Source of the DNA: Takakia lepidozioides
Taxonomy: Eukaryota; Plantae; Bryophyta
Assembly (NCBI GenBank): GCA_030704615.1
Contig: CM060731.1
Coordinates: forward strand, 86,242,001-86,306,000
Length of the DNA: 64,000 nucleotides
Reading direction: 5' to 3'
The notes under the pieces were generated by a model. That model did not search any database, had not been told where the DNA came from, and saw nothing but the letters and a program-made list of their open reading frames with translations. Both the position numbers and the translations under genes were made by a program. Of the stretch, positions 74 to 45,900 are shown piece by piece; positions within the stretch are counted from its first letter, which is position 1, and each line of letters opens with the position of its first letter.

Positions 74-5422
<5,349 letters not shown>

Positions 5423-20294: not shown

Positions 20295-20334
<40 letters not shown>

Positions 20335-21780: not shown

Positions 21781-23069
21781 AGTTTGTTAGTTGTCTGGAA
21801 ATCATTGGTAAAGCATGTAGGAAATTAGATAGTGTCTGCGATGACCATGGAGTGGAACTCTGGCGTCAAGATGACCGTAGGAAGCTGCATCGATAGCAGA
21901 TTAGGCTGCCAATTCGGTACCAGAAACGGCAAGTTAATCCTGTTCAAACAATACAAGACGACTGTTCCAGTCCCAGATTGCGATCTCTATTTTCTCCCGC
22001 CTTTCAAGTCTAGTAGGAACACATGGCGAGGAGCTTGGCAATTGGTGGAAGCGACATGTACAGCGATAAAATATCGCAACAAAGCAATTGGCCGCATCGG
22101 AATGACAGCAGGTCAGGACGACTTTCAAACGGCAAAGCGTGGACTTGTTAGCGGTGCGGGACAACTGGAGGGGACTCCGGACAACCTATGACTCAGTGGC
22201 AGGGTCAAAGACCCAAGAGCCATCACCAGGGATTTGATTTCCAAAAATACCACAAAATCTGTGTGTAGCGAAAATACGACGAATGGCGAGAAGTGCAACT
22301 TTTTACCACCGATGGAGCTGAGAATTTACAGGCTGATACAAGGTATATAATTGTAGTTTTTCACCAAGTTTGGTAATTTATGGAGCTGATTAGCAGCAGG
22401 GCCAGATTATTGAGTCGACGGCACTCACGGGGCCTATTATTTGCATTTCTACTTCTTGGATGGATGAAAAATCCTGGAATTCGCCTTGAGGAGCTGTATG
22501 GATGAAATGAAAACTCGCGCCAACTGGTCATCTAATTGGATGGATGAAAAGACAGCTTTCATTTGCCTCTAAGACTTTTCATCCATGTTGAATATTATAT
22601 TATATATCTTCCAAGGAAACAATAGTTTAATGAATATTTTCCATTAGTTTATTAGGCTCAAAAACAGTATAAAAGAAGGGCAAGGCTTCTCTTGTTCTTC
22701 ATCTAGTTCTTCTCTTGCTTAGTTTCCTCTTGTTGTAGTGTTGTTAGTTTGAGGCTTGAGGAGGCTAGATCCTAGGGAGTGGAGCTTGAAGCTCCCTAGT
22801 TAGGTAAAATTCTTGTGAGTTAAGGCAAGTGGCCTAGCTTGTGGGCCTTTGAGCCATTTCATTTATGAAGGAAGAGGGCCATTTCATGTAGAGGAAAGTG
22901 ACTTGAGGACGAGTAGGAGGGGCTGGTGTGGACTTATGGACGAGAGCCCAAGTGGAGGCCGCATAGAGTACCATTACTTGAGTCGATAGAGCATCCCAAG
23001 CACTCTCGCATTGAAAGGTTGATCCTATCTTACCATTCACCATTTATGTATGTGATTCATTTATTTATA

Positions 23070-23949
23070 GTGCTGCACCCAAGCCACGCATCACTACACA
23101 GCAAAATACCCAACCTTCGTACGTTACCCCATACACAATTACCCATCCCCCCAAACCACATCTTGCGCCACACACCCATATTAAGCCCTTTGTGCAACCG
23201 CTAACTCTACCAACCCACTCCCAACCCTCCCTCATATGCGCACCCACACGCAACATCATCACCATTGTGCACCACAGTAGCCCAAACCACACCACAATGA
23301 CTTTATTCCACTCTAACTAACTGGACATCCCTTGACGATATCGTCCACCGCACACTACCTACATATGGGAAAGCACTCCGTGCCTATGCCACCAAAACCC
23401 AACATATGGATAGTCTCTCTACATGCTACAAAATTACTTGCCCGCCGCTGGCAAGACAGGGCCATCACGAACATACACAGTGTCAGTAACACGCCCTCTA
23501 CCGCACACCTAGTGTAACTGCATTTTCCCACGCCAGTCGCCCCCACAACCTACACCCCCCCCCCCCCCCACCCAACATCCATCCACCCATTACCCCCACA
23601 TGACATTAACATATCTACGCATATCCTTCATATGGCTCCGAGCACTCTACTCTAACTCAAGCAGTAAAGGGCAAGGCCGCCCACAACATTCAACATAACG
23701 CACCCCCCAACACCACACCCTCTCTGTACAATATTTTTACACCAGACCAGTATCACCCACCATACCCACAGCTGTCTATAAGGCACAGTCCCCAAGACCG
23801 CCACCCTAACAGGCCATGGAACATTACAAGAACCCCCCCAAAAGCACTATTATGCCACCTCCCCCCTTTAACACACCCCCCCTCAACTTAACTACCTTGT
23901 TTAATGCATCCTCCCAAATAGCCCTCTCTCACTTCCTCTCCCTATCACA

Positions 23950-23986
<37 letters not shown>

Positions 23987-24860
23987 CACCACATCCCTAG
24001 TGCAATCTGTCAGCCCATGGTGCCCAGATGCCCAAACTTTTGATGACTATCCAACATCACCTTACACCAAAACTAAAACCCATTATGCCCCACCACTCCC
24101 CGATCTCACTCAGCCGCCATCCTAGTATAAACAGATAATGGCCATCTTCAAAGCGCTGCATTTCCCCAGCCGCCAGCCCCCCTGGCTCTCGCCACCATTG
24201 CAGAAACGCACACACCAATCGCCATAGCAAACCCCCTTCCCATAGTCCCACCCCCCCCATAATTGCTCTCGTCACTGCCACAGCTCCACGCCCACCACCC
24301 ACTGCTCATACCCACCCCGCATTAGCTCTCATCATCTCTCTCCTCCCTCTTCGTTTATCCCAGTCAACATCCTCATACGTATGTCTAGCTCCAAGGTGTG
24401 CGGAATTCAAAAACGAGCAGGCAATATTCAAAAACAGCCTAGATCTACCAGCATCACTACCCGAAGTAGGAAATCTCGTGAACTCCCACCCTCCACCCTC
24501 AAATCAACCTCGAAGCAACAGCAAATGGCGGACGACGAGGAGATGGAACGGACTCCCACGGGAGCGACGGACGCCAACGACATGCACTCCTTCGACGCGC
24601 TCTTCTTTGCTGCCAAAGAGGCCTACTAGACCCGGTCTACACAAAGCCCACCAAAGATCGTCACTCCAACCATCATGAAGGATCTTTAAAAAACTCATGT
24701 CAGATCTGCTCTGAGAGGCGGCGTTCACAAGAGCCTTAAACACTCCAGGGATCGGCAGCTCACGGCATCTACAGCACGAGCACCATCACCACCTCCATGC
24801 CGCCATCGTGCGCATTCCCGTAGCGCAAAAGAAAGAAACTAGGTTGCACATGGCCTTACC
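23070..24860 (+). mobile_element. Probable degenerate LINE-related remnant (C/A-rich segment plus ORF1-like start MADDEEMERT...)
   Basis: Same compositional bias and poly-C runs as the neighbouring LINE; no diagnostic domain recognised. Confidence 0.3.
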
Positions 24861-25364: not shown

Positions 25365-27966
25365 CTCCCTCCCTCCATGGATCTGGCTGGTTCATTTAAA
25401 ACTTGATAGTTTAAGACCAGTGGTATGTTACCTAACCCCTAATTAACCTTCTTGAGATTTTTCATCCATATTGGATGATTTCTGGTTACTTTGTGGATGG
25501 ATTTCGCTGATGGGTAATTAACTATGTGAATAAGTTCATCCATAAAGGATGAACTTTCTACTTTGCGGATGAAATCATCAGTCGGTTGATCTACCTTTGG
25601 CAGAATTCATCCATACTGGATGTATTTTTTGGATGAAATCCGTTACTAGGTGTTTAACCACTTACTTCTGTTTAGCCGCACCGGATGAATTTCTTTACTT
25701 GACGGATGATGTCATTTACTTATGGCAGAATTCATCCAGACCGGATGAATTTCTATTTTTTGGATGAAATCCTTTGCTGGAAAATTAACCATCCGCCTTA
25801 GTTCATCCATACCGGATGAACTTTTTACTTCTTGGATGAAGGCAACAGATGGTGGATTTTTCATTTATCAAAATTCATCCATACCGGATGATTTACTTGT
25901 AGGATGAAGTTCGAGTTTGGTTAATTTCGGTTATTTACATTACCCGGATTTGTGGTATAAGGTCGTGATGTTTTTATCCTAATGAAGCCATCTTATTGAA
26001 GCCATCGCATGGATGAAATCGCGGGAAATTGCACTTCATCTCTTCCTTGCCCTAACCCTCTGCACGACGATCGTGCTTAAGGGATGGCGGGAGGTGAGAG
26101 ATGGTGGCGGGGGGCGCATGGAGCTCGATTCAGGCGCCCTTGAATGCTATGGAGCTGCTAAGGCCTTTAGGTGTTCTGGCAAGATTCAGTACCTTCTTCC
26201 CCTCTTGGGGTGCGCAATGACGGCAGTACCTGCAATTTCCCTGTGGCGGTTGTCTCTAATGCTTGGCGGGTGATCTACCTATGTTGTGGTTGCTTGTTGT
26301 GACCTTTATTGATCGTTAAGATACAAGCGGCACATCTTAAGGCCTCAGGGAAGTGTCTGAACTCTTTAAGTTTGGGCGATTCACTTTCTTTGTGCATGCT
26401 TTGTACTTCTTGTTCTGCATTATTGTTTGCACGTCTTGAGAGCTATGGCGTAGGCCTCTCTTCCACAAGCCATCAAGGTATTGGCTTGCATATGCTATGT
26501 TTCCTTTCTGCCCCTGCTTTGTAATGCATGTTGTACAGCGATAACAAGCGTGAGACCTGTGATTCACCTGGGGTTCCACATCGTCTCTAACTTAACTGTT
26601 TTTTATTGCATGTGATGGGACTAACATGGATTTTAAAGCTTGAAGTTGATTGGAATCGAGTTGAAGAAGTGACGCCATCTGTATCTTTGGGGGAGAACAA
26701 TCCTTTCTTCCTCTTTCCTTTGATCTTGATGGCTCCTATGTTTAACTTAGTATGGTGGACAATCAATCATTAGGGTGACTATCTCTTGTTCCCTGTGGCA
26801 TACGGATGTGACAATGGAGCAATGATATGACAAGCTGATGGCTTTAAAGAGATCTGGTAACATGCTACAATGTAGGGCAGACATGTTTTCATGACCAGAC
26901 AGTGTTCTTGAATGTACAAGCATTGGACACTTAGCCTCTTTTAGAAGCTGGCTACTTTAGGACACTTGATGCCATGCCAAACTGATATGGATGGATCTTT
27001 TGTGGCCAAATCTGGTCCTTGGTTATATGCCCTTGAATGTTTACCTATTTTCCAAAATGGTAAGACATTGGTAGATGTGAAGAGAATGATCCAGGCCTTG
27101 TATTCAAGTTGCTTTAGGATAAATGATACCAAAATAACCTGCAGGCCTGATGGGATGAGCAATTCAGATTCTTTGTGTTTCCTATGGATGATTGCCTGGC
27201 ATGTAAATCTGATTACAGCCTGTTATGGTAATGATTTCCCTACCCTAGACATAGAACTTGGTCTTGGGGAATGGAATAAGATTGGGGAATATTACTCTAC
27301 CCTGTCATTGAACTTACACACCAGCCCTAGATCTAAACAGATCATGGGGCAAAAAACTTGGTGTCAATAAGTGACTTGATGTGCAAAATAGGGCAGCTGA
27401 TTATACCCTATTGTATAAGCTGCCAAATATCAGTCTGTAATCCTACTTTGGTGATGTTCTTTATGCAAAGAAATGCTCTTATTTTGTTCTTAAGCCTTCT
27501 ATGTGATCATAAATGGCTTCTTTAAGACAAACAGACATTCCCAGCCATGAACAGTGATCAATGGTTCTTTATTTGGACATGGATACTTACTGCTCAGTCA
27601 TTTTGGTATGGAATGATACAAAGAACCCAAAACTATACTAGTTTTTGGGCCAACAATAAATTAGGATGGTTGGTTATGCCTTGGTATGTAAGCTGACCAA
27701 AAAATACATACTGAATGACATGGCATGTCATGAATGGCACTTTTTAGCATGTTGAACAAAGGTTTCCTGCTATGAACAGTGGTAATTGAGTCTCTAATTT
27801 TCCCCACCCCCCACCCAGAGATTTCATTGACTTTGAAGTCTGGGATTTGTCATAAAGCTGACTTGTGAATGAAGAATGGTTGATAATGCCTTGTTATGAG
27901 GCTGATTTTGTCGTTAATTTTACAATGACCTTGTCATGTCTTTGTCCATGTCTCGACAAGACATAA
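25365..27966 (+). repeat. Left arm of ~2.6-kb inverted repeat pair; outer part rich in TTCATCC/GGATGAA
   Basis: Reverse-complement similarity to 28341-29195 and 43096-44720, e.g. CCTCCATGGATCTGGCTGG, GCACGACGATCGTGCTTAAGGG, GACTTGTGAATGAAGAATGGTTGATAATGCCTTG. Confidence 0.88.
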
Positions 27967-29195
27967 TTTTTTTCCCTCATCTCTCCCTCTGTCCCATCAG
28001 GATGTGAAGAGAGAGGGAGAGAGAGGGAGGCAGCTGCAGTCCCCCCCACCTTCATTTTTCATTTTTTTTTCCCACATCTCTCTCCCTCTCTTTTCCCTCA
28101 TCTCTCCCTCTATCCCATCAGGATGTGGAGAGAGAGGAGAGATGAGGGAAAAAAAAAAAAAAAAAAGGTGGGGGGGGGGGGGGTGACTGAGCAGCACCTG
28201 CTTAGTCACTCCCCCCACACATTTTATTTTTATTTTTATTTTTTTTTTTCCTCATCTCTCTCCTTCTCTCCCTCTCTCCCTCTCTCCATCTGTCCCTCTC
28301 TCTCCCTCTGTCCCATCAGGATGTGGAGAGAGAGAAGATCTTATGTCTTGTCAGGACACAGACAAGACTTGACTAGGTTAATGCCAGATTAATGACAAAT
28401 CAGCCTCATAACAAGGCATTATCAACCATTCTTCATTCACAAGTCAGCTTTATGACAAACCCCAGACTTCAAAGTCAATAAAATCTCTGGGTGGGGGGGT
28501 GGGAAAATTTAGAGACTCATTTACCATTGTTCATAGAAGGAAACACTTGTTCAGCATGCTAAAAAATGCCATTCATGATGTTGCAGTCTGTATTTTTTTG
28601 GCCAGCTTACACACTAGGCATAACCAACCATCATATTTTATTGTTGGCCCAAAACCTGGTTTAGTTTTGGGTTCTTTGTATCATTTCATACTAAGGTGAC
28701 TGAGCAGCAAGTATCCATGTCCAAATAAGGAACCATTGATCATTGTTCATAGCTAGAAATGTCTGTTCAGCTTAAAGAAGCTATTTATGATCACATAGAA
28801 GGCTTAAGAACAAAGTAGAAGCATTTATTTGCATAAAAAACATCACCAAAGGAAGGTTACAGACCATTTTTTGGCAGCTTATACACCTGGGTATAACCAG
28901 CTGCCCTATTTTACACATCAGGTCAAGTTCTGACATCATGTTTTTTTTGCCCCATGATCTGTTTTAGATCTGGGGCTGGTGTGTAAATGCAATGACAGGG
29001 CAGAAAAGTGTTCCCACATCCTATTTCATGCCCCAAGACCAAGTTCTATGTGTGGGGCAGGGATATCATTACCATAACAGGCTGTAATCAGATTTACATG
29101 CCATGCAATCATTCATAAAAAAACACAGAGGGTCTGAATTGCTCATTCCATCAGGCCAGCAGGCTGCCTTGGTATCATTTATCCTGAAGCAACCT

Positions 29196-29621
29196 TGTCA
29201 TGCGCATACACCTCGCTACACAACTACATCGTTGTCCAACCACACAACATATACATACACACAAATCAGTTTGCCACAATGATTAATAAAAACTAGCCAC
29301 CATCACTCATGCATTACGAGTCAAGCCAAGCATACCCCAAAAACTATGGGAAATCTGCACTACGCGCGCCATAGCCGACGCGGGAGGCTCAACTCGAGAG
29401 AGATGAGCCTCCCGTGAAGATAAGCCACGCCCAAGGGCCAACAAATATCTTGACCCCTGGGTTGACACTTGGATCAAGCCCAAGTGTCATATATAAAAAC
29501 TAGTTATTTATTGGCTAGTTTCACACTACTAGTAAACTTTACTTGACAGCTGTCATGCGCATACACCTCGCTACACAACTACATCGCTGTCCAAACCATA
29601 CACACAAATCAGTCTGCCACA
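29196..29621 (-). repeat. 3' terminal Y-X-Y repeat block with junction palindrome TGACAGCTGTCA (29544-29555)
   Basis: TGTCATGCGCATACACCTCGCTACACAACTACATCG occurs at 29196 and 29551; the intervening 269 bp matches 42828-43095 apart from roughly ten differences. Confidence 0.95.
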
Positions 29622-29625
29622 ATTG

Positions 29626-29632
29626 CCCCCCT
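29626..29632 (-). promoter_or_regulatory. Polypurine tract AGGGGGG just upstream of the inner Y repeat
   Basis: Minus strand reads TAGGGGGGCAAT-TGTGGC, the usual PPT-then-TG arrangement. Confidence 0.65.
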
Positions 29633-29882
29633 AGCTGGTGGTTAGGTCCCTCTAACTCCAGATAGCTACAAGAGGTAATAGCCACAGCCTCACTAAGTCC
29701 TCTATCACTATCCCTATTGTACTCAAACTCTATAGACCAAGAGGCCGGGTATAAGAGTAGCCCCATCGTTATTCGCCGTCTTGCAATCTGTGAACTTGAG
29801 CCAGAGATCTCGTGTATTGGTCCCATAGTAGCTTGGCCTTGTGGTTCTTGTTAGTCTCACGTGGTTGTATCCATTGCTACTA

Positions 29883-30530
29883 TTAAATGCAGCGTGGACA
29901 CAACCAATCCCCATCAGGAACCATATCAAGAGGTGGCGTCAAGCATCCCATGTGCCAACCTCTTGAGCATCAATCGCACACCAGCATGGTGGCTGCCCCT
30001 CTGGCAGACCCACACAACATGCACCGCAACGTATCACGATGTTGTGCAATGACAAGGTTCTCGAAAGCCATGGGCATGACTTTCTTGAACAACTCTGCAC
30101 GCTGATCACATGCACGTGCCCACACGTCCGGATCGTCAAGGTTGAGAACTGTAGCAGCTTCTCTATGAATGGATGCAGGCAAATCTGGCTCTCGGCCAAA
30201 GAGAAGAAAGTATGGTGGGAAGGAGGCAAGTGATGCTTGTTTGCTGAGCCTATAGCCCATGGCTAACCAAGGTAACTGAAGGTCCCAATCTCCTAGGTGT
30301 CCCTTCTGCAAGCCATACTTGCGCAAACCCTTCTTCACTGTCTGAACAACCCTCTCTACCAAGCCATTGGCCTCAGGATGATCCCGAGAAGTGGTGCGGT
30401 GGTCTACCAAGGCCTTGTCACACAACGCCTGAAACTCCCCCAAGAACTCTCTCCCTTGGTTCGTGAGTATCTCAGTTGGAGCACCGAATCAGCTAAGTAC
30501 ACAATCCAAGAATGCATACGCAGCTCCCTC
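29883..30530 (-). pseudogene. C-terminal part of DDE integrase (rve) fused to PHD finger
   Basis: FGAPTEILTNQGREF...HPEANGLVERVVQTVK...PYFLLFGREP, then CMLC...LVCD*CSRGWHMGCLTPPL...WLCPRC (C4HC3); internal TGA stops fit CGA deamination. Confidence 0.92.
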
Positions 30531-30929
30531 TCCTCCAGTGACTATGGGTCCAATATCAGGCTCCCAGTTGTCCTCTGTGACTGCAACCTTGAGTCCAGCA
30601 GGCCTAGAGGTAGAAGACGCGTCCCGTGGTTGCTATGCTGCAACCTCTTGAGTAGTGATTACTACCTGCTCTGCCAATGATAATGCATCATCCTGCCCCA
30701 TCATCTCATTCTTGAGGACCTCCTCAACCCGAGAAAAATCCCCAACCTCATCCATCACTACCGCCTTGGCTGCCAACTCCCTCTGAACCTCGAGCATCTC
30801 CCACGTGTGCCATAGATACGGCCTGCACGTCGTGGTCCTCACCTGTTTGCCCCCACTCGCTGCCCGTACCGTCTCGGTAGGCAGAGAGACCATCAAGGGA
30901 AGTGTACTCCGTACTCTGTGCTGCTCAGC

Positions 30930-31915
30930 CATAGCCAAGCTGATAATCCAGGTCAAGCAATTGAGATCCATTGCTTGCCCCAACACCTGACGACGTGATG
31001 CCTCAGAAAGAGATGGCAGCGCCGTGGTACCAGTGGTAAAACCCATCGCCCACTCGCGCTCGTCAACATTGGGCTCCACTAACTGCTGCAACTGGCTATC
31101 CCACAAGAGGCCAGGTCCACCATCCCAGAAAGCATGAGATCCTGGAAAGCTGAGCAGTGTAGGCAATGCTGCTTGTGGGTGACCTACCTTATTGACCACT
31201 GCCAAAGGTGACCGGTCATCGTGTCTCACACGATGAGACTGCCTCCCTATGTCCAAAATGCTATCCACCGTGAGGTTTGGTGGCCGCTGCACCCCATCAA
31301 ATGCACGCTTGAGCAGTGCAGGTGGCATCAAGTTGGTCCACCATAGTTGTGGGCGATGAGCCCATGACCCCACTGTAGCTGCATCCAGCAACACTGCTAA
31401 CCCAAGCCAAGACCGCTCCCGATGCACATTGGCCATCACCTTGGCCCGAGAATCACCCATCAATGGCACATTCTCCAAGATATATGCCGGAGAGTCTGTC
31501 TGCTGAAACTGTAAATAGCGCAGGATCCTCAACATCTCCCAAAACGGGCGTGACCTTGAGTCTTGTAACCCATTGCCATGCCCGGCTGATGAATGCCCTT
31601 GGCAGGGCCAACTTGCCACTACCAAGTGAATAGGGCCAACCCGCTCCAAATCATGCGCCCCCAGCAAAGAGATGTCTGCTGGCAAGGCTTGTTGGTATCC
31701 ACGAACTGCAGACACTGGCAACAAATCAGGGTACTGCTGCACCAACTGAGCAACATGGCACAGTGAGATGCGTCGTGCAGTCTCATCCCTCTCTACATAC
31801 ATGTAACATCAAACTCGTACACATGCCTGCAGCACTGCAGCACTGCAGCACTGCAGCCAATCCATTGTTGATCCCGTCAAACAAGTCCAGAAGGCATATG
31901 CCTTCATCCGGGCAC
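30930..31915 (-). pseudogene. DNMT3-like C5-cytosine DNA methyltransferase domain within the polyprotein
   Basis: Motif I LLDLFDGI (alternative frame, 31870-31893), II YVERD, IV SWPCQGHS, VI YILENV, VIII AHRPQLWWTNL, IX EREWAMGF, X RRQVLGQAMD, in canonical order. Confidence 0.9.
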
Positions 31916-32267
31916 TGCCACACAGAGTGTGGGTGTCCAATGGCAACAACTGAGGTGGTCCTAGTGCAATCACCGCACTTTCCTCCTCTCCTGATAGTAC
32001 AAAGGCCTCTACCCAGGCTTGTTGCACCCGTCTATCAGTCTGCTGCAAATCCTTGCTCGTATCCCACAATGGAGTGTGAGCAACCATGGCAGGCAACTCC
32101 GCCGTACCATGCATGTCATCCTGATCTGCTGGAGGTGGCACATCCTCTGCATGGGCATTGCCCTCCAGTAACTCTCCAGGCCAACTAACTGCAGCTGTGA
32201 AGGTTGCTAGTGTTGGCATCTTGCCCCGCTGGGCAGTAGCAACACCCCCAATGAACGTCATAGGGAG

Positions 32268-33053
32268 CTATACACGACGACCATCCCCTGACTGCCATCC
32301 AGGCCTGTAGGATGCTGACTCCTCCCAAAAATCCAGGGTGAAGCCCATGGGATACAACACTGCCCCACGAACGAGGACATCGTAAGAGACCGCGTCTGTC
32401 ACAATGGCCTTGGCTCGCATCACTGAGCCATCTATAAGATGATCCAGCTGTAGTCTAATGGCCAACTCATGCCGTGTCATGCCCCGAGTCTGCTCTGATC
32501 CTCCCAGAGATGTCTGTATCTGGAAAGGACAAGGCTCCATATCCGCCTCCATGAGGCCCAAACCTGCAATAGCAGCTCTGCCCAACATCAGTGGCTGAGC
32601 TCCCGAGTCCAACAAGACCCGCAGTGGCCGGTATCTCTTGCCTGCCGGTCCACTCAAAGAGAAAATGTCATCCTGGTTGTCTAACAAGACAACTTCAGGT
32701 GTCACCATGGCGCGCTCAAAGGCTGGCCTAGCTGGCAGCTCTGTCAACCTGACAGCTGCAGCTTGCCATGGCGCAGCCGTGGCAGTCTTGACCCTCAAAT
32801 CCGAGAATCCCTCTGCCACTACACCTTCCACTAACTCCGCAAAAGATGAAGTGACCTCCCCACTCTCACAGAGTGTTGTTGCTAGTCTGAACACTGCAGC
32901 CGGTCTTACCCCTAGCGTCGCAATCATGGTTGCCGAGAACAGTGGGGCTTGACACACAGAGGTGGCCGCCCCCAACAACACATTGGCTGCACTAGCCTTG
33001 GCAGCAGGTGTCAGAGCTGCACGTGTAGTTCTCCCCAATGGCACAATAACGGC
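32268..33053 (-). pseudogene. Retroviral-type aspartic protease region
   Basis: RVLLDSGAQPLMLG active-site motif and YDVL..G; the frame joins 38452-38694 once CACTA 2 is removed (...DTEVEA|VIVPLGRTT...). Confidence 0.88.
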
Positions 33054-36000
33054 CACTAGAAGAATAACCACTGGCCCCCGTAACCACTCTTGTCTTTTAT
33101 CACTCTATAAATCACTCCAAGTAATGGTAACCACTGGTCAGTGGTTAATTCCGATAAAATGCCACGGTGGCATCATATGGAGTGGTTGGAAGTGGTTTCA
33201 ACCACTGAGTAATCCACGTGTAATATTTAATTTTATATTTATTATTTGACATTTGGTCAAATATTTATATTAATAATGATAACATCCGACATGGACGGGT
33301 GCAGTGATAAATTATGAGTGGTTAAAGACACCTCAGTGATGGGAAGTGGTTGAAACCACTTTCTACTCCACGTGTAATATTTTTTTTTAGATTTTTATCA
33401 TTTCAAAATATATTATTCCACGTGGACGAGGATAGTATGCGTAGATCATGAGTGGTTAAAGACCCCCCAGTGATTGGTACCACTTGCACAGTGGTGGAAT
33501 GTGAGTGGTTAAGACCCTTTTGTAACTGGAACCACTCTACAAGTGGGCACTTGTGAGTGGTTACATACACGTGTTGGTACCACTTCTGTGGTGGTTTGTG
33601 AGTGGTTGAAGACACCTGAGTGACGGGGGTGATTGAAACCACTTGCTACTCCACGTGTAATAATTCAATTTTTATTTAAGATTTATCATTTCAAAATATA
33701 TTTTAATTATGAACTATATTATTCCACGTGGACGGGGACAGTATACGTAGATCTGGAGTGGTTAAAGGCCCCCATTAATGGGTACCACTTTGAGAGTGGT
33801 GTAGAGTGAGTGGTTACAGACCATTTAGTAACTGGAACCACTCGACCAGTGGTTACGCGTGAGTGATTACATACACACCAGTGATTGGTATTACTTCTGT
33901 GGTGATACATGAAAAACTTTAGTGGTTTGTGTGTTGATGGAAAACCCAAAATCCATCTATCTATCGCTACATTCATCCATCCAGTCATGAGTGAGGGGAC
34001 TTAGCGTTTTTTTTGTCTTCCCTGCCACTGTGGCATCTGTTTGTTTTCTTTGTGTTGTAGTGTGAATGCAGGGGAATGACATTGAAATTTGTGTTGTTAC
34101 TCACTGAGATTCTGCATTTCTACAAAGGAAGGGCCCTGGTACGAAAATAGGTTGAGTTGTCCCTGCAATTTATTCCATACATGTTTCTAGGTTAAATCAT
34201 GGGAACAATGGGGAACTCTTGGCCAGGATGAAAATGCTCTCAAGTACCTGCGATTTATTTCATCCACCAGATGGACGGATTTCATCCCTGATTTTCCAGA
34301 TTACTCTATGAGCGCGATGAAAGTCCGTGGCCTGGATGAAAGTCGATCAAACTCATCATCTACCTATTTTTATCCTGACGATGAACGGACTTCATCCCTG
34401 CAGGAAGTATGATGGCGGGGAAGCCCTACGGGTGCTGTGGGAAGTAGAATGGTGTGGTGTGTGCAACAGGGAGCTTGGCGCACGTGCATTGAGGTATATC
34501 GATTGAGGAGCATGGTGTGGCATGAGGTGTGGCTGACAGAGGAGGAGCAATGCTTGGAAGGGTGTGCAACTGCGATTACAGGGAAGCGGTGCCGTCTTTT
34601 GATGATCTATTTTTGAAAGATCAACTCACGAGGGAAGGACTTGCTTTGAAGAAAGGGAGTGTTGCAGGACGATTCATTAAGGGCAAGGGAGGCTTGATGC
34701 CATGTGCTACTGACACAAGGGATGGAGGCTTAGAGGCGGTGCCACCTTTGATTTAATCTCTGAAGGTGTGGGAGTTGCGGGGAAAGCAGCTCGGCGTCAT
34801 GGTGCAGCTACCAACGGAGGGGCAGCAGTACCGCCGTTGCTTTCATGACCACAATCGCAGGAGGATGGGCTTCAAGGCAGGCAGCTTGGCATCCTGTGCA
34901 ACCGCCAGATGAGGGGAACAGATCCGTTGTGTGTTTATGTTTCCTTCTTGCCAATTTCTGACGGTTGAGCTTACGGTAGAGGAACAAAGTTGGTAAATAA
35001 GTTGGTAAATGACTCGGATCACCTGTAGATAGGGTTAATGAAGGATGCATGTACAGAGTAGAGAAATATCTGAGATGCGGACTAGCTTTTGTGTTAGCAT
35101 GTGTTTTGCTTTAGGGTAGGTTGGCAGGAATGCTGGCAGATGAACACCCTGTGATTTTCCAATGATGACATCTGTAGGGAAGAAGAACCCTGGCATATAT
35201 GATGATCTGTTCACTAAAGAGACCCAATAACAATTTAGATAACCTCAGCCCTGTCCATGTCTTCTCTTCCGCTGCGACATGGATAAGGGTATAAAGTCTC
35301 TGGTCATAAATAGATTTAGAATGAATTAAGTAGGGTCTGAGTCATTTTAGAAAGAGCAAGTAGGTTGATGTCATAGGGCAGGGCCATGGATCACTGCTCA
35401 AGAAACAGTTAACTATAGTTTACCAGAAGGGTTTCATGCCCCTACTGCAGTGTGGCTTTTCCTTAATGTAGGATGTGAAGAAGTTTGTCCATCCTGCAAA
35501 TGTGGGCTTTTGGCTCCTGTTAGTACGGTATTCTTCCTGATGTTTACAAGGCAGCCCGCTGATTCATTTCCTGATTCAACCTATTTCAGCCTATTTTGCC
35601 CTCTTATCAGACTCGGGCCTGATATGCATATTGAAATCTGTAAGTTAGCTCGTTGGTGCAAGAGAGAGAGAGTCAGCTTGGTCTTAGCAGGCCATGCCAT
35701 GTTCAAAGCTGGAATTGTACCTAATGTCATTCTGAACATTGCCTGGCAGCTCTGGAAAAGGGGAAAGAGGTCGACATATTTGCAAAATGAAAGCCTTGCT
35801 TGGTGCCTGCAAAATCCATGGCAATGTGGAGATGGCTGAACGTGCGGCATGAAGGTACCTTCTTCAACACATTTCACCCTGTTTTTCCCTATTACCAGAG
35901 TAGTCCCTAAATTTTCATGTAGAATTCTGCAAGTTAGCTTGTTTGTGATGTGAGGTTGCATGAATTTTATACCGATCCTTCACGGTGGTGGGACAACCGC

Positions 36001-38451
36001 AATCACCAAGTGTGGCTTTTCTTAATGTACGATGTGAAGAAGTTCGACCATCTTGCAAAGGTGGGCTCTTCGTACGTGTGAGTACCATGATTTGGTATTC
36101 CTCCTAATGTTTACAAGGTTCTTGGGAGAGTCAGCTTGCAGGTCTTAGCAGGCCGTGTTTCAATCTCTGCTTGCTCAGCTGCACCGTGGTGGTTCTCACA
36201 GACCAATCCAACATTACCTGACTACAGACAAACATCACGCACAAGAGGTCATTTTGGGTTGATGGTCGGTCAAATCCTCCATGGGTCAAGGACAATGTGG
36301 TGAGGGCACGTTTCAGCCTGTTTTGCCCTCTCATCAGACTTGGCCCTGAGATGCATGTTGAATTCTGCATGGGTGATAAGTAGGGTTGGGTGTTTGCTGG
36401 AACAATTGTAGGCTGTCATTGTCAGCCGCTAGCAGCAAGGGAAGGATGTATGCATGATTTGTGCAGAGCTTGGATAGCTGAGGGAGCAGGGGTAGAGTCG
36501 GGCCGGTCCAGATTCATCCAAGAGGGCGGGACTTCAAGCTCACGATTACCTATAATTCCCTGTGGATCAATAGCTGCAAGAAACCTGCATGGGTAGATGG
36601 TCAACTGGAAGCCGCAGCAGCAACGACACAATTGATAAAATGAAGCACTGCTAATGAAGGCACCTTCTTCAACACACTTTTATCCTGTTTTTCCCTCTTA
36701 TCAGAATTGACCCTAAATTTTCATGTTGAATTTTGCAAGTTAACTGGTTGAGTGAACCTTTGATAGTTTGGAGTGACTTTGACATGGTACTGCCAATGTG
36801 ACAACATGGAAATATCCAGTTCTAAACAGATAACAGCTGAGACGAGGAGAAGCTGTGGAATGAATACTTTTTCTGACCCCAGTCAATGGTGCGACAATCG
36901 AGGCAAAAAGGTGAAATGCCTGTTGGATTACAGAGAGTAGCAGATGCAATTGACCATAGTGATAAGTTGAGTTGGGTGTTCCCTAGAACAAATCTAGGCT
37001 GTCATTGTCAGCTGTTAGCAGCAAGGCAAGGATGTATGCATGATTTGTGCGGCGGCATGGATAGCTGAAGGAGTAGGGATAGAGTCTGGGTCCAGATTCA
37101 TCCAAGAAGGCCAGACTTCAAGCTCCAAATTACCTATGATTCCATGTGGATCAACAGCTACAAGTCAACTAAAGGTAGCAGCTGCAGTGGCACAGTTGAT
37201 AAAATCAGGCACCTCAACCATGACCGCAGCTTCTGAAAGAGGATCAAGAGAGGCCAGATGTCATTATGAACATTCCCCTGGTGTACATCTACATCAAATG
37301 TGAGCTTGGCAGCCCTGGCCAGAGAAGAACATGAAGAGGGCTTACAATTTCGTTCACTCGGGCGTAGACGTTGCGCAATGAGAAGAAGGTAGGAAAGCAG
37401 TTCAGTGTTCCTAGCATGCATGCGGAGACGTTGTGTAGAAGTTAGGCTCAGACTTTTATCATGGCTGGATTTTGTTGACAGTGTTCCAGCACTTACTCTC
37501 AGGGATTTTATCTTATTTTGTAGAGCTTGAATCCCCAATGATATTTCTTTCGCTACAATAGTGGTATGTGTTCATCTAGTCATGTTCCTAGTCACTTGCA
37601 CGCCAATGTAATAGTGGTATAATTTAAAACTGTAAGAGTAGCCAAATACACACAATTGCCTCCATTACCACTCCTGTAGTGGAAGACGTAATCACCTATA
37701 TATTACTGTATTAGTGGTATGAATTCCTCCAGTGATATTCTTAATCACTTACACACCACTCTGTTAGTAATCATTCCAATCCATAGGTCCCACTCAGAGA
37801 GACACCATGGATGATTCAAACAGCTTACATACCACCTATGTGGGTAATCATTCCAATGACCTGCTAAGAGACGTCATCCACTCACATAACCACGGTTTGA
37901 GTGATATTGTATATTCTCAGTTTTCATAGAATGACTCTGTGAGTCATTTCGCGATCACTCAACAAGTGGTTTCGGAAGTCATTGAATTTTTCACTCCATC
38001 CATTTTGTAGCACCGACACATGACACGTGTCCATGCTGAGAGTGTCGCCACATGTCAACATAATATCCAATATCATCCACGGACCACCGACTTCCACGTG
38101 TCCACTAGAAAACGGAAGTGGTTACTTTATTACTATGACACGTCAATTTACCACTGTGACACATCAGAAGTGGTTGGTTTACCTCAGTGACACATCATTG
38201 ACACGTCACATTGGTGAGTTTACACGTCACAGTGGTTAATTTACCACTGTGACATGTCAGCGAACAGGTGGACCCGGACGTGAGTGGTTCGAACCACTGT
38301 CCTTAACCACTAATGCCACGTAATGTCTTTTACCACTCACTTGTCCTAATCCACTGGTTCTTCATCACTCTAGGGCCAGAGTGGTTTAGTGTCTTTTACC
38401 ACTCAAAATGAGTGGTTAACAGAGTGGTTATTCTGCGTTTTTCTTCTAGTA
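33054..38451. mobile_element. Non-autonomous CACTA element 2 inserted in the retroelement polyprotein
   Basis: Left CACTAGAAGAATAACCACT; right ...GGTTATTCTGCGTTTTTCTTCTAGTA (terminal G>A); TSD GGC (33051-33053, 38452-38454); dense AACCACT/AGTGGTT subterminal repeats. Confidence 0.93.
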
Positions 38452-38454
38452 GGC

Positions 38455-40244
38455 CTCTACTTCGGTATCCGTCAGGCGAGAACTAGGTGCCATGGATGTC
38501 GTCGACACTATCTCTGCCAAGATGAATGATTGAGGCAACCTAGCCTGACGGCTTGCCTCCCCACGCTGTGGATCCAACTCCACCTCTGCACCTCGGGGCT
38601 CAGGAACTCGTGCTGCTCTTTGAGTGATGGCTGCAGCAGACTCCACCTGCACTAGTGGTAGTGCTGCCCTACACATAAATCCCATGTCTCCCATGTCTCC
38701 TCCGTCAGGATGACGTTGCTAAGGAGGAACAGGAGGTGGACCCTCATGTCTTGGAGCTGGTACCACCTGAGCTGTGGCCATGGCAGCAAGCCTTTGCTCT
38801 AGCTGCTGAAGCTGGTTGGCCATGTCTTGGTCAACGCCCTGACCTCCACGTCCTTGGCCATATTGTGCTTGCCCTCGTCCTCTCTGAGGTGCTCCACCTC
38901 GCCCTCGGCCATCATTGTTCCCTTGGAACTGGCCTCGCCGCAACTCAAGGTGCAAGTCATAACACTGGGCATCTACATGCCCATACTTGCCACAATGCCC
39001 ACACTGCAACTGTGCAGGCTGTGCTTGTGCCGACCCTTTGCTACTCTCTGGGCAATCTTTCTTGACATGGGATCCTCCACATGTCCAACATACCACCCTT
39101 GGTTGCTGTTGGCCTGCAAAAGAAGCTATTGGCCTCTGCACCTGAGGTCCCCAGTAAGCTCCATGGAATTTGGGTTGGGCAGCCTTGCCCCCCTGACCAC
39201 ACTGTTGGGCAGTCCCTTGTGCCTGTTGGCTGGCAGCTGCGCCTCGTGCAAGCATGTCCTTGCCAAATCCAATGGTAACAACTCGCTCCTCCACCATGTT
39301 GAGCTAAATCCGCTCAGCTAGCAGAAACACATCTGCTAATGTGGGTTGGGCCGCTTGTAACAGGGTTGCATCCCGCATCTTTCTCCTGATCTCCTTGTCC
39401 AAAATTCCATACCAGAACTGGACTGCCCGAGCTTCAATAACCCCTTGGATCATACTTATCAAGCGCCTCATACGAGTGTAGGCTCTCGCAAGCTCTCACT
39501 GGATTTGCGTTGGAAGTCTTGCAAACTTCGCAGCTTCTCTGTCCATACGCCTTAGTAGTTCCTCCGCAACTCCTGGAAGAACTCCACCGCCGGGTTGAAT
39601 CTAGGCACATGTGTTGTAGTCGTGGCAGGAGGAGTAGTAGCACCTTTAGAACTGGTACCACCTGCAGAAGTACCGACACTACTTGTTCCACTACTAGTGC
39701 TGGCAGTGGGAGATATTGGTGCTGATGCAGCTACTGGTCGTGTCGTGCATCAAGTAATGGAGATGTAGTCAGGTGACCAATACATCCTCCACTCCTCAAT
39801 CTCTGCTTCATGTCCTCGCCTGAACTTGTGGTAATCGTCCATACGCGGGCCTTCCAAATGTTGGAACAGTCCCTTCCACGCCATGAATGGGGTGAATAGC
39901 TATGGATTGCGCATCTGCCGTAAATCACACCAGCTGTCGAACTCCTGGATAAAGTCATCTAGCTCGATTGTGCCCACAGCTCCAGAGTACCTACGAGGCC
40001 CCTTGGTAGCTCCATACTTCTCCTCCATATCGTCCCACAACAATGGCGAAGGAAACTGCACACTTGTTGATGAAGCCTCCGAGTCTGTGTCAGACTCTGC
40101 ACTGGTTGAGGGTGGAGGTGAAGGTGGTCTGAACCGAACACCGCGTCTTGTGAACCCACTCTCACTGCTACTGCCTGTAGCCAAACTCCCCTCAAAACCC
40201 TTGGGTAACTCCGTGATGACACTCACAACCCACACCTCCCCCAC
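38455..40244 (-). pseudogene. Gag with two zinc knuckles
   Basis: YSGAVGTIELDDFIQEFDSWC, LRSLQDFQRKSSESLRE, knuckles CWTCGGSHVKKDC and CGHCGKYGHVDAQC, GRG-rich tail; several stops and frameshifts. Confidence 0.85.
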
Positions 40245-42813
40245 GTGACACTATAAGGCTCTAGTACTAATTCTAATAGTGACACGGGTGGGCACCTGTT
40301 GTGGTTTAAGGGTTATATCCCAGTGGCTAAGAACACCGCAAGAACTCTTATGGTTGGCTGGTCATCAACCTAGCCTCACCATAGAAGAAATACTGGTGGT
40401 CTTGCTGGTCATCACTCCAGCCTCACCACCGACAGCATACTCTAGGATTGACCGATGATCAAATCCGGCCTAATCCCGATGAAAGCAAACGCCCACACAA
40501 AACCAACATGGCGCACAGTCAAGCATGCAGGTGTGGGGGGGATCCAAACACAAGAAACCAAAACATCAACACCCCCACACCAAATTCCCTCCGTAGTGCT
40601 GCTCTTGCACAATATCCCACAGCCCAAAAACCTGGATTGACTCTTGCCTCCACCTATGTAAAGTCTTTGGCCTACCGAGAGGGCGGAAAGCTATGGGAAA
40701 GAGAGACTAAAGCAATTCCTAACCCCAGCATGCCCTCATCCCGACACTCTTTATTTCCTCTCTAGCCATACACTAATGTCAAAAAGTGACAGGTGTGTTA
40801 CAAACAGACAGCTAAGTGATCATCCCTGACTTGAAACAACTTCTTCAATAGACCTCAAATAGATGTGGGGAGGATCTAATTTACATTAGAAAAATTCTAT
40901 AGATTTTTGGTCAAGTCCATTTTCTGGTCTAGGTAGACGCATTTCCACATTCTGTAGGTCCCTGCGCAAGTTTTGGGTCAAACGGCCTTGGTATGCCCAA
41001 ACATGCTCTATGTAATTTAAATTAGATCAAAGAACGAATTTCTTTAATTTTTCACACCCAAAACATTCTCGACATTAAAAGCTGCTCCCAGGTTATCTAC
41101 GGGTTCCCCTGAGGAACCCGAGTTCCTGCAGGTTCCCCTTGTTCATTGTGAATTTTTCAAATACTGCATAGCGGCTCCCCAGTCAATCTTGCTATCTCCA
41201 TTTGCGATTATACCCGTTCCACTATGAGGGCCTGGAAGATTCATGAGCATAGGCCTTAGAGTAAACAAAACACCACAAACTTTCGACACTGCCTTCAGAC
41301 GCTCAACCAAGAGCATATACGAGAGTGGCTGCCATCTTACATGGGCAATAGCATGAAGCATGGCCCACGGACCTGCAGCTCTTGAGTCTTCAAAATGAAG
41401 TAGGCGGCTCCTTAATAGCGTCACTGCAATGCAAATAGGCAGACAACACAAGGTCCCCGCAAGACAAGCTGGTTCTTGCACGAAGCGATTAGGAGGTGAT
41501 GTATGAGCAGCCCTTTATCACATTTCTCCTCCACCGCAGCAAGGTCTTACCTGCATACAGGTACTTCTTGGTTGACTAGGTTAATGGCCTGATCCGTGCA
41601 TGCTCGATCTCAGCTGACACAAGGAAGCCAGGTTCACCACACCTTCCAGCACCTTCATTCGTTAATCCGTGCTCTGAAATTGCTACATTCAGCAATCTAA
41701 ACACAATCGTTCAGTTCAGCTTTTGTCCGAGTTGGCTTTTCATTTCACCACCACGATCTGATCACTCCGTCCGTCCTGTCAACATTCCTTAATTTACATA
41801 TCGATTTTGCTTGTTCTACTGTCAAGCTCCAGGAAATAATTTGCCAAGCTCGTGGCTTTCCCACCAATTGTTCCTCCAAGACCAAGAAGATCATACGTCA
41901 CCGTTGCAGCCACTTGACAGACCACCTTCTTGCTACATTCATGCCCGCATAAACGAAAATGATCACCTGGCAATGTAACTATGTAGCTTATTACTTAGTT
42001 ACTGTCGAACTTATGACGGCCAGCCAGCCAAAGCAACGAGCTCCCCCCTACTCTGATGTGCCGAGGATCTTCACCTAATCCTCCTTTACACTCCCAGGGC
42101 AAGACAAGATGGGCTAGTCCATGGCCTGGCTCCCTCCGCTTCTATTAATGCATGCCTTCCTGCGGCCACCTAACCACCAATGATTAATTTGATGGTCTGT
42201 CAAGCTCTGGCTTTACCGGCGGCTTTCTTGAAGGGATAAACAAGCTCCTTGTTTACGGGCAAACAGTGGCTCACTTTGCGAAATTTTTGTCCAGTCTAAA
42301 CTAGTCTACTTTCATTTATATCTTTTTTCATAGGAACTTTAAATTAGGTGTTTCAATTTATTTTTGTTGTCAACTCAATTTGAGATCACCCAAAAATTGG
42401 TTTCCAAACAAAGCTGTTGTGATTTGAAGATGAAAAATGAGAGTAAGATTAGAGTAGACTGGACAAAAGTGAGCCACTGTAGCATGCTTCTGCCCTTACA
42501 CCTCCCTTCACAAGCTGGCCTCGGCAGCCTAGCAAATGTTGGTTATTCTCCGACTACCCCAACAACTATTCATTTGTTATTGGCTCCTTCAAGCAGGTTC
42601 CGGGCACTTCAATCCAGTTGCACCATGGCTCCCTTGCGATAACCCCTTCCATGCGTACCTTTGCTGGAGCCATTGTCATCTCTCAAACTATAGACTTGGA
42701 TCTTTTCATACTAGGACCAGCTCTCTCAGTCTATGATCATGTTTTAGCACTACAAACAAAAACAAAACAACAGTGCTAAAACTCTCACTCACATCCTGCA
42801 CTAAAGACATGAG

Positions 42814-42954
42814 TCATCTCTCTCGAGTGATTAATAAAAACTAGCCACCATCACTCATGCATTACGAGTCAAGCCAAGCACACCCCAAAAACTATGGGGA
42901 ATCTGCACTACGCGCGCCATAGCCGACGCGGGAGGCTCAACTCGAGAGAGATGA
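42814..42954 (-). promoter_or_regulatory. Putative self-priming primer-binding site abutting the 5' repeat
   Basis: TCATCTCTCTCGAG (42814-42827) lies directly next to repeat X and is the exact reverse complement of CTCGAGAGAGATGA (42941-42954) inside X; no TGG-type tRNA PBS. Confidence 0.7.
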
Positions 42955-45900
42955 GCTCACCGTGAAGATAAGCCACGCCTAGGGGCCAACAAATATCTTG
43001 ATCCGTGGGTTGACACTTGGATCAAGCCCAAGTGTCATATATAAAAACAGTTATTTATTGGCTAGTTTCACACTACTAGTAAACTTTACTTGACAACCTG
43101 AATACAGGGCCTGAATCAGTTTCTTCATAACCAACAATGGCTTACCACCATGGACTTTGTCCATTAAAAAAGCTAAGCAACCAAGGGCATCTAACCATGG
43201 ACCATATTGGGCCAAAGAAGAGCCAGCCATATCAATTTCGCATGGCACCAGATGTCCAAAAGCAGCCAACTCCTAAAAGAGGCCAAGTTTACAAAGCTTT
43301 ACAATAAAGAACACTATTTGGTCAAAAAACAAAGTTGCCCTACGTTGTAGCTTGGTACCAGATATCTTAAAGCCGCCAGTTTGTCACATAATTATTCCAT
43401 TGTCACAATAAGATGCCACAGGGAACAAGAAAGAAACACCCTAATGACTGAGTGTCCACCATACCAGGTTAAGAACAAGAGCCAGTAAGATCAAGGGAAA
43501 GAGGAAGAAATGATTATTCTCCCCCAAAGATACAGATGTCATGGCGTCGCATCTTCAGCTCGATTCCAATCAACTTCAAGCTTTAAAATTCATATTAAGT
43601 GAGGACCCTCATCTGGTCCCATCACATGCAGTAAAAAACAGTCAAGTTAGAAAAGATGTGGAACCCCAGGTGAATCATAGGTCTCACGCTTGTAGAAGCC
43701 TGCGCCATAGCTCCCAAGACCAGCAAACAACAATACACAAAATAATGGATTGCCCAAGCATTTTAACAAGTTTAGTCACTTCCCTGAGGTCTTAGGATGC
43801 GCCGCAGTATCTTAATGATCAATGAAGGGCACAACAAGCATTCACAGCCTAGGTATCTACCCGCCATCATGATAGACAACCGCCACATGGAAATTGAAGG
43901 CACTACCGCCATTGTGCACCCCAAGAGGGGAAGAAGGTACTGGAATCTTGCCAGAATACCTGCAGGCCTTAATTACGCAGCTCCATAGCAATAAATGGCA
44001 CCTAAATCGGGCTCAATGCACACTCCACCACCATCTCTCAGCTCCAGCAACCCCTTAAGCACGATCGTCGTGCAGAAAGTTAGGGCAGGGAGGAAATGAA
44101 GTGCAATTTCCCGCGATTTCATCTGCACAAGATGAAATCCACCAACGAACGGTTGAAAAATCCCGATTTTTCATCCCTGTGTCATCCACCAGGGATGACA
44201 TCCAGATAGGGATGAAAATCATTTGGCATTCATTAGGATAGAAACCTCATGACCTTATAAACAAAAAATCGGGTAGGGTAAATAACCGAAATTAACCAGA
44301 TTCGGACTTCATCCGTAAGGTAAAAAATCATCCGATATGGATGAATTCTGTTAAAGGTAAATCCACCATCTGATGACTTCATCCGAAAAGTTAAAAGTTC
44401 ATCCGGTACGGATGAACTGATATAGATGGTTAAACACCCAAAAACGGACTTCATCCAAAAAATGAAAGTTCATCCATTATGGATGAACTCTGCCAAAGGT
44501 GAATCAACCAACTAATGACTTCATCCAAAAGTAAAACATTCATCCGGTATGGATGAACTGATACAGATAATCAATCACCCAGCAACGAACTTCATCCGAA
44601 AAAGTAAAGAAATCATCCGGTATGGATGAAATATCAAGAAGGTTAATTAGGGATTAAGTAACATACCTCTGGGTTTAAACCATCAGGTTTTAAAAGAACC
44701 AGCCAGATCCATGGAGGGAGCACTAGAAGAAAAACGCGGAATAACCACTGGCCCTTTAACCACTATTGTTTTTTCCTACTCTATAAACCACTAGTAACCA
44801 CTTGTTAGTGGTTAATCCCGATGAAATGCCACGGTGGCATACAGACAGTGGTTGGAAGTGGTTTCAACCACTCAGTAGTCCACGTGTAATAATTTGTTTT
44901 TATTTATTATTTATTATTTGGTAAATATTTTAGTTAATAAATAAAATATTCCACGTGGACGGGTGCAGTGCTATATTGTGAGTGGTTATAGACACCTCAG
45001 TGATGGGAAGTGGTTGAAACCACTTGCTACTCTACGTGTAATAATTCAAATTTTATTTATGATTTATGATTTGAAAATCTATTTTAATTAATTAATACAA
45101 TATTCCACGTGGACGGGGTCAGTGCATGTTGATCTTGAGTGGTTAAAGACACCTCATTGATTTGTACCACTTTGACAGTGGTAAAGAGTGGGTGGTGAAA
45201 GACACTGCAGTAATTGGAACCACTATTCTAGTGGTCACTCATGAGTGGTTGCCTACACAACAGTGATTGGTACCACTTTTGTGGTGATACATGAAAAACT
45301 TTAAGTGGTTTGTGCACCTGTGACAGACTTTGAAAAACGGAAAGTGTCCAGACCATTGTAGGATGATGCTATTGAACAAATGGTTCCAACAATAAACTTT
45401 ATTCTAGCCTGGTCTTCAGTCTCTCATATTAGTTCTAGAATGTTATGTGGTTAAAGGCACCTCAGTGATTAGTATCACTTGGACGGTGGTAGATTGTGAG
45501 TGGTTAAAGACACCTCAGTGACTGGTACCACTCTTGTGGTGATATATGAAAATGTTTAAGTGGTTTGTGCACCTGTGGCAGACTTTTAAAAACATACAAG
45601 TGTCCAAATCATTGTAGGATGATGTTATTGAATAGATGGTTCCAAACAATCAACTTTATTTTGAATCTAAATCACAATATTAATTCTCTGAAGCACTTTC
45701 CTCAACTCGAACAATGTTTGGTCATACGAAACTAGCTTGAAATATGGTAGCCAACATAGCCAGCTCTTCTCCACTTAGAGCCGTGGCACCATCCAATGAC
45801 CTAGGTATGGGCTGATCTGATAAGGTAGAGGGTGCCCGTAGACCTCCAATGTCCAAACTTCAACGATGAATTTTAGAATGAAAATAAATTAAGCCAGTTC

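Follow-up and report, generated by a model that had tools for sequence, protein, structure and literature searches.

The cytosine methyltransferase in the window (the whole 64-kb stretch of DNA that was analysed) lies in a Ty3/Gypsy-type retrotransposon. We lean towards a reading in which this copy, itself dead, derives from an element with a Gag-protease-DNMT first open reading frame (ORF1), a leaky stop behind the methyltransferase (DNMT), and a packaged enzyme that probably methylates newly made cDNA. Comparison of the window with itself places the element at 29196-43095 on the minus strand, a length of 13.9 kb. Read from 43095 to 29196, it consists of repeat A, a long leader, Gag, a nested CACTA transposon, protease, DNMT, an integrase remnant, a PHD finger, and a terminal arrangement B-GC-A-B (Table 1). 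It starts with TGTCA, ends with TGACA, and has ACCT on either flank. The two copies of A differ by 6 substitutions and 3 gap columns in 267 aligned positions.

Table 1. Features of the element and its flanks, in element order (positions are those of the window)
Feature	Positions	Strand	Remarks
Target-site duplication ACCT, 5' flank	43096..43099		same 4 nt at 29192-29195; uninterrupted target paralog 26714-27289 has one copy
5' repeat A, starts TGTCA	42828..43095	-	96.3% identity to 29280-29548
Self-primer stretch within A (predicted)	42939..42954	-	complementary to primer-binding position, 16 nt, 1 mismatch; 0/300 shuffles; RNA fold z -4.3
Primer-binding position, directly after 5' A	42814..42827	-	pairs with A; without the TGG start of tRNA sites
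Gag part of ORF1	38455..40028	-	tblastn 45-60% to Marchantia and other ORF1 proteins; stops and a frameshift break the frame
Two CCHC-type knuckles in Gag	39067-39090, 38977-39003	-	
CACTA-type DNA transposon, nested in ORF1 between Gag and protease	33054..38451		5.4 kb; termini and 3-bp duplication GGC
Aspartic protease, LLDSGAQ at 32595-32615	32330..32720	-	weak Pfam Asp_protease_2 (E 0.04); 50% to Marchantia ORF1
DNMT3-type C5 cytosine methyltransferase (by sequence and predicted fold)	30942..31915	-	motifs I-X, unrearranged order, no DUF3444; broken between motifs I and II
In-frame TAG then CAA CCA (CAR-YYA readthrough context), ORF1 end	30627..30635	-	
Junction of copy-specific deletion, ~2.1 kb	30528..30530		RT, RNase H and integrase N-terminus gone
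DDE integrase core remnant	30024..30530	-	rve_3 weak; 81% to Sphagnum fallax P0022 over 76 aa
PHD finger, integrase C-terminus	29889..30035	-	PF00628 40.5 bits; one internal stop
Polypurine tract TAGGGGGGC, directly before B1	29625..29633	-	same tract before B1 in L004 and L008
Repeat B1, ends TGACA	29551..29623	-	
2-nt spacer in internal TGACA-NN-TGTCA junction	29549..29550	-	same junction in L004/L005 and L008
3' repeat A	29280..29548	-	
Repeat B2, ends TGACA; element 3' end	29196..29280	-	
Target-site duplication ACCT, 3' flank	29192..29195		

The order of domains in the family is Gag-protease-DNMT followed by RT-RNase H-integrase-PHD. Among 29 fetched loci, gag, protease, DNMT, RT, RNase H and integrase occur in this order in L008 and L014, with the PHD finger added in L004, L013 and L016. 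An earlier note on this DNA had placed the enzyme between protease and integrase in the polyprotein frame. That is correct for the window copy, except that motif I is in another frame, but not for the family, since this copy is without RT, RNase H and the integrase N-terminus. It is the loss of about 2.1 kb that brings DNMT next to integrase in the window copy: contigs of five runs (X1, X2, X3, X5, X7) depart from the window sequence at 30528/30530, and contig 25 of run X9 has about 2.1 kb between the two sides of the junction. Nor does the enzyme sit inside a single Pol frame ahead of the integrase; it sits in ORF1 with Gag and protease, and a conserved stop precedes RT. The window copy's own RT is gone, and the family RT (P0005) is nearest to Ty3 (4e-48). 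The note's description of the copy as a pseudogene was borne out by premature stops at 32270, 31811, 30491 and 29972, by frameshifts, and by the CACTA insertion in ORF1. The stop at 30635, by contrast, is characteristic of the family and does not reflect decay.

All six methyltransferase motifs reported earlier are present on the minus strand: LDLFDGI (31870-31890), WPCQ (31596-31610), ENV (31467-31481), AHRPQLWWTNL (31329-31361), EREWAMGF (31038-31061) and RRQVLGQAM (30969-30995), that is, motifs I, IV (PC), VI (ENV), VIII (RxR), IX and X in order. In the window copy, a triple 8-nt repeat (31830-31853) and the stop at 31811 separate motif I, which is out of frame, from the other motifs, and the second arginine position of motif VIII is substituted. 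The open stretch 30636-31808 matches PF00145 with 34.1 bits (cut-off 22), which settles the profile check that had been proposed, and 21 of the 24 longer relatives pass the same threshold. Among solved structures, DNMT3B comes closest to this stretch (E 3.6e-4). A family profile of 39 rows finds DNMT3A at 2e-16, DRM2 at 1e-7 and HhaI at 1.5e-4. For a structure model of a natural relative (P0025, mean pLDDT 69), the top Foldseek matches are all DNMT3 (DNMT3A/B; 2e-13, target TM 0.74). An Atlas search with the window protein and P0025 as queries gave no result. By sequence and modelled fold, then, the domain is a C5 methyltransferase of the DNMT3 type, closest to DNMT3A/B in both respects, as the note had suspected from the motifs; its motif order is unrearranged, so it is not a DRM enzyme.

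The enzyme appears to have been kept by selection. Within ORF1, DNMT is the part best conserved with Marchantia (70%, against 47-58% for Gag and 50% for protease). Between the window and nine fetched loci, dN of the DNMT is 0.37-0.66 and dS is at least 2.0 or saturated, with similar values for protease; dS is near saturation, so that dN/dS is only bounded from above (about 0.2). This comparison across copies, also proposed in the note, points to purifying selection, since dN is far below dS. Over the 39 rows, many of them decayed, the catalytic proline is kept in 39/39, cysteine in 36/39, glutamate in 35/39 and asparagine in 39/39, and the two motif VIII arginines in 28/38 and 31/38.

What is selected need not be DNA methylation. 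The domain might have been kept for binding DNA or RNA, or might methylate the RNA of the element, and the inactivity of the Klebsormidium domain in yeast and the lack of extra CpG loss in the element would fit such a role. We regard this as quite unlikely, however, given that the catalytic cysteine, glutamate and arginine positions are kept and that the nearest structures are those of the DNA enzymes DNMT3A/B, with DNMT2 only at 7e-4. CpG depletion does not discriminate as a footprint of self-methylation, with observed/expected ratios of 0.45 in DNMT, 0.46 in the nested CACTA and 0.52 in the window. The A repeats (29280-29548 and 42828-43095) keep more CpG than the coding region (0.74-0.80 versus 0.44-0.46); the promoter repeat may be less methylated, or its CpGs may be selected.

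The window copy is one member of a large family. The searches returned 24 longer relatives and 139 of similar length. Those with an organism name, at 60-72% identity, come from Marchantia polymorpha (up to 71%), M. paleacea, Calypogeia fissa (71%), Riccia sorocarpa and four Sphagnum species. A cluster of 18 Marchantia members includes several open Gag-protease-DNMT proteins of 1,280 aa, which are encoded on autosomes and chromosome V. An unrestricted search gave 1406 clusters. Among 145 new representatives, 84 have another retroelement domain by blast and 61 have DNMT only; of 20 representatives looked up, the four with an organism name, all more distant relatives, are from Scenedesmus, Closterium (two) and Klebsormidium nitens (GAQ93235.1, P0303). 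Annotations list many copies of the family as hypothetical host genes, some of them on Marchantia chromosome V.

These data bear on the simplest alternative, that the window copy once captured a fragment of a host DNMT3 gene or is an accident of assembly or nesting. The copy is indeed heavily rearranged, with its CACTA insertion and 2.1-kb deletion. However, the relatives and clusters just described, in Marchantia, Calypogeia, Riccia and Sphagnum among others, and the same domain order in independent loci, contradict a single capture. In runs X1, X2 and X5, whose organism is the nearest to that of the window, thousands of contigs cover the DNMT region, about as deeply as protease and integrase (this depth gives no copy number). 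Host DNMT3 genes of streptophytes are described as exon-rich with a C-terminal DUF3444 (PMC6453930), whereas the DNMT region in the window is intronless and Pfam scans found no DUF3444 in the window or in any of 35 element proteins. A single host capture, which the earlier note had named as the outcome that would undo its claim, is therefore extremely improbable and was rejected on the family data.

The methyltransferases of the elements fall into two sets by position. We built a FastTree of 103 DNMT domains, which covers element enzymes only, has no outgroup, and leaves out cluster members, hits with fewer than 255 aligned residues, and DNMT-only fragments without an organism name. A branch with support of 98 separates 33 rows with DNMT before RT from 67 rows with DNMT after RNase H. 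In this unrooted tree the window falls in a group of 19 rows (support 100) that also contains Marchantia, Calypogeia and Sphagnum; Closterium lies on this side of the branch as well. All named members of the window's DNMT clade are liverworts or Sphagnum, from which a bryophyte host may be guessed. The Klebsormidium row, P0303, has a long branch and is weakly placed, outside the 98-support pre-RT group. The other set (P0220 from Scenedesmus sp. PABB004, P0024 and 65 other rows) consists of single-ORF polyproteins with the order RT-RNase H-DNMT-integrase-PHD and includes at least one chlorophyte. It is the same DNMT clade with the domain at another position, and the accessible parts of the literature on DNMT retroelements do not mention it. 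P0366, P0368 and P0370 (cluster of P0330) have open frames of 2,311-4,799 aa with DNMT and none of the retroelement domains of the blast set, possibly another carrier element.

The stop that closes ORF1 is conserved. In the window, the DNMT frame ends with TAG CAA CCA (30635-30627), and the same frame continues towards RT. When four runs were aligned to 30500-30760, none of 36 variant rows fell in 30627-30652, where depth peaks; no variant reached 5% or more there in any of the four, and the motif is kept under a second species label. The stop context is thus invariant in the young high-copy family. Of the 29 fetched loci, the junction could be read in 22 and aligned in 18 (4 are interrupted), which with the window makes 19 segments from about 12 distinct elements. 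A stop is at the homologous site in 17/19 segments (11/12 elements), and the stop with complete CAR-YYA in 9/19 (6/12 elements) versus 1.7% in shuffles; in eight segments the stop is present with its context damaged. Decay of the fetched loci is heavy, and TAG or TAA can arise by C-to-T change, so that some of these stops may be products of deamination. Protein ends provide the stronger argument. In a search of proteins up to 2,000 aa, 10 had Gag together with motifs IV and X and were open over 1,170-1,320 residues; all 10 end 69-98 aa past motif X, nine of them at 94-98. The CAR-YYA context was read in the window, the fetched loci and the runs, whereas Marchantia and Calypogeia are represented by protein ends.

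We conclude that the ORF1 stop is very probably read through to give RT-RNase H-integrase-PHD, as its match to the tobacco mosaic virus (TMV) signal suggests. Because DNMT and RT share a frame, they can form one polyprotein only by readthrough, and because stop and CAR-YYA close ORF1, DNMT is predicted to be made at the level of Gag and Pol as a minor readthrough product. The stop context of soybean SIRE1 is also of the CAR-YYA type. An in-frame stop with CAR-YYA separating two ORFs is described for TMV (UAG-CAR-YYA) and MuLV gag-pol, and in TMV CAR-YYA alone directs readthrough (PMC2194720). In contrast to these three, the stop of the window family comes after protease and DNMT, which puts an accessory enzyme among the abundant products.

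Readthrough is not the only way past an in-frame stop. Tca2 is the precedent, and Pol might be made here from a spliced message or an internal start. No stimulating hairpin was found behind the stop (fold z +1.0), and gene models from Marchantia, Sphagnum and Riccia (P0005, P0008, P0012, P0022, P0092) join DNMT to RT, both of which would suit such a route. However, the five models skip differing stretches around the ORF1 stop, as automatic models do when they dodge a stop, and the six bases after the stop fit CAR-YYA in a frame that runs on into RT. We consider splicing or an internal start very unlikely, and readthrough remains our preferred reading. More distant relatives do without the arrangement: in P0223, P0258 and P0324 DNMT runs into RT with no stop, and in 67 rows it follows RNase H. 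Thus, dosage at the level of Gag is not needed for keeping the DNMT.

The position of the enzyme suggests how it might be used. Fusion to Gag and protease targets proteins to the particle, and cDNA is made there. With ORF1 fusing Gag, protease and DNMT and the leaky stop giving little Pol, DNMT made at the level of Gag would be loaded into each particle, and the protease would free many DNMT molecules at the site of cDNA synthesis. We postulate that freed DNMT methylates the cDNA or a circle de novo before insertion, so that a new insertion would arrive pre-marked like old heterochromatin, damping both detection by the host and the element's own burst. We rate this somewhat better than an even chance. 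When tested in yeast, DNMT3s from dinoflagellate retrotransposons methylated CG sites de novo (PMC5890265), and DNMT3b, a host enzyme of moss, acts de novo on CG and CHH (PMC6453930). The Klebsormidium enzyme had no activity in yeast, an assay its authors call inconclusive, and methylation of an element's own cDNA was already proposed by de Mendoza et al. in 2018 (PMC5890265).

Alternatively, the abundant ORF1 enzyme could be a nuclear one that acts mostly in trans, on copies already integrated or on nearby chromatin, either restraining the element or reshaping insertion sites. Synthesis at the level of Gag would far exceed the need of two cDNA strands, and slowing of transposition is among the options listed by de Mendoza et al. 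(PMC5890265). We think that a main action in trans is unlikely, since the fusion should direct the enzyme to the particle, the relatives with DNMT after RNase H carry it in Pol beside integrase, and Pfam scans found no chromatin-reading domain attached to the DNMT itself. The PHD finger is at the integrase C-terminus, and its nearest solved relatives are those of CHD4, PHF12, KDM5A/B and PHF21A. These fingers read unmethylated H3K4, a state that is also read by the ADD domain of animal DNMT3. By this resemblance, the finger might perhaps steer insertion to chromatin with unmethylated H3K4. We return to methylation of the cDNA or circle as the preferred action of the enzyme.

The repeats of the element are split. 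Two full direct LTRs were not found at the ends; the layout is A..B-NN-A-B. Among 21 loci of at least 5 kb examined for end layout, L004/L005 (one element) and L008 have the complete A-coding-B-NN-A-B with TGACA-NN-TGTCA, and L013 and L016 have the B pair. All three whole elements have TG..CA ends with a 4-bp duplication (ACCT, TTTG and CATA), a polypurine tract before B1, and a self-pairing primer site, where the sequence that directly follows the 5' A is complementary to 14-16 bases from the middle of A. The pairing sequence is different in each element, and shuffles reached it in 0, 1 and 0 of 300. No tRNA gene was found in the 64-kb window. We take the pairing as the signature of predicted self-priming as in Tf1/Sushi and Tcn1. 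Their primer site, too, is complementary to the element's own 5' repeat instead of a tRNA (PMC6317226). Tcn1 is described there with ordinary paired LTRs and a chromodomain, in contrast to the split repeats, PHD finger and DNMT of the window family; the main text of that survey does not mention PHD, Marchantia or Klebsormidium.

The positions of the primer site and polypurine tract imply that the reverse-transcribed repeat is B-NN-A, with the integrase sites inside it. We suspect that the ends of self-primed cDNA with B-NN-A repeats join into a two-repeat circle and that integrase opens this circle at the second, internal CA-NN-TG, leaving A-coding-B-NN-A-B. We consider this route likely, although no two-repeat circle was observed; to our knowledge, integration from a circle by a DDE integrase is a route that was rejected for retroviruses. 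The element behaves like Gypsy and is not a canonical two-LTR member. Because its repeats are split, LTR finders would miss the family.

Other elements share parts of this organization. SymbioDIRS-Dnmt3 and PAT/Ngaro-type DIRS elements have split direct repeats and integrate by a tyrosine recombinase (PMC5890265). The likeness lies in the DNMT3 (in SymbioDIRS-Dnmt3), the A-coding-B-A-B layout and a probable circular intermediate, whereas the window family has protease, a DDE integrase, TG..CA ends and 4-bp duplications. Membership in DIRS/Ngaro/PAT was rejected, as DDE integrase and protease are present and Pfam scans gave no tyrosine recombinase hit. Troyka was rejected on termini, duplication length and host range, being described with CG..CG termini, a 3-bp duplication and occurrence in animals only (PMC12440569). 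The EpiLTRs of Cymbomonas and Euglena are LTR elements that also combine a cytosine methyltransferase with a chromatin reader. Their DNMT is reported to be sister to DNMT4 and at the 3' end of pol, accompanied by DAM and a chromodomain, and the authors call it distinct from the streptophyte Gypsy-DNMT3 (bioRxiv 10.64898/2026.05.21.726589).

The closest known element is KnitGypsy-Dnmt3 of Klebsormidium nitens, described with Gypsy domains, an unrearranged DNMT3-type domain under purifying selection, and a DIRS-like A-coding-B-A-B layout (PMC5890265). The window family shares with it the DNMT3 domain in a Gypsy polyprotein and the DIRS-like repeats. It differs in being from land plants and not from an alga, and in that DNMT closes ORF1 at the stop with CAR-YYA instead of being in the Pol ORF with RT. 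The available text on KnitGypsy-Dnmt3 (PMC5890265) does not mention self-priming, the position of the polypurine tract, 4-bp duplications or a PHD finger. K. nitens GAQ93235.1 (P0303) has the same knuckle-protease-DNMT order at 34% identity, and we infer that it is KnitGypsy-Dnmt3. The window family represents the Klebsormidium type of element in land plants. The earlier note was right about the land-plant host, which agrees with the intron-containing clade-II serine carboxypeptidase-like gene and the PPR fragment in the window, but the element is not the separate surprise it was taken for, nor a standard two-LTR element. The survey of de Mendoza et al. is described as including Physcomitrella and Selaginella and leaving out Marchantia and Sphagnum (PMC5890265), and later papers, in the parts available, say 'streptophytes' and cite de Mendoza et al. 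2018 alone. Our literature search, with most subscription journals and Repbase reports outside its range, found nothing on land-plant members, the readthrough site or self-priming of this family.

We propose tentatively that there is a DNMT3-Gypsy clade throughout the green lineage (chlorophytes, Klebsormidium, Closterium, liverworts and mosses). In land plants its members would have shifted DNMT to the Gag side of a leaky stop; they would prime themselves, integrate from a two-repeat circle at the internal att junction and package the de novo methylase in bulk so as to deliver pre-methylated copies, and their open ORF1 copies would stand as anonymous Marchantia genes. Cytosine methylation is the main defence of plants against transposons, and an element with a de novo enzyme of its own would turn that defence into a tool. 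What such enzymes do has been an unanswered question since 2018, the known hosts being difficult organisms to study. Methylomes and mutants exist for Marchantia polymorpha, a genetic model that also has many open 1,280-aa Gag-protease-DNMT copies, and this makes the question testable: the leaky stop predicts dosage and location of the enzyme, and the repeat anatomy predicts integration of a circle by the DDE integrase. Gene models from the family can also inflate counts of host DNA methyltransferases.

The rest of the window contains several other features. A multi-exon gene of serine carboxypeptidase-like clade II, intact by its appearance, lies at 74-5405 (+); an exon search found three relatives only, at 52-57%. 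The region 19378-24678 has a LINE-like endonuclease fragment (PF03372, below cut-off) and a mirror-image GC skew of +0.6 at 20-22 kb and -0.6 at 23-24 kb. The uninterrupted paralog of the element's target repeat (26714-27289) is adjoined by a 1.9-kb fold-back structure (27178-29122) with arms that are 87-96% complementary. Subterminal repeats at 44739-45314 and 48833-49904 mark ends related to the nested CACTA (33054-38451). A tandem array of about nine copies of a 181-bp unit (47078-48824) directly follows a decayed PPR fragment (46622-47131), and a second Ty3/Gypsy fragment of another lineage, with RNase H, integrase and a Tf2-1-like SH3 domain, is at 62417-64000 (-).
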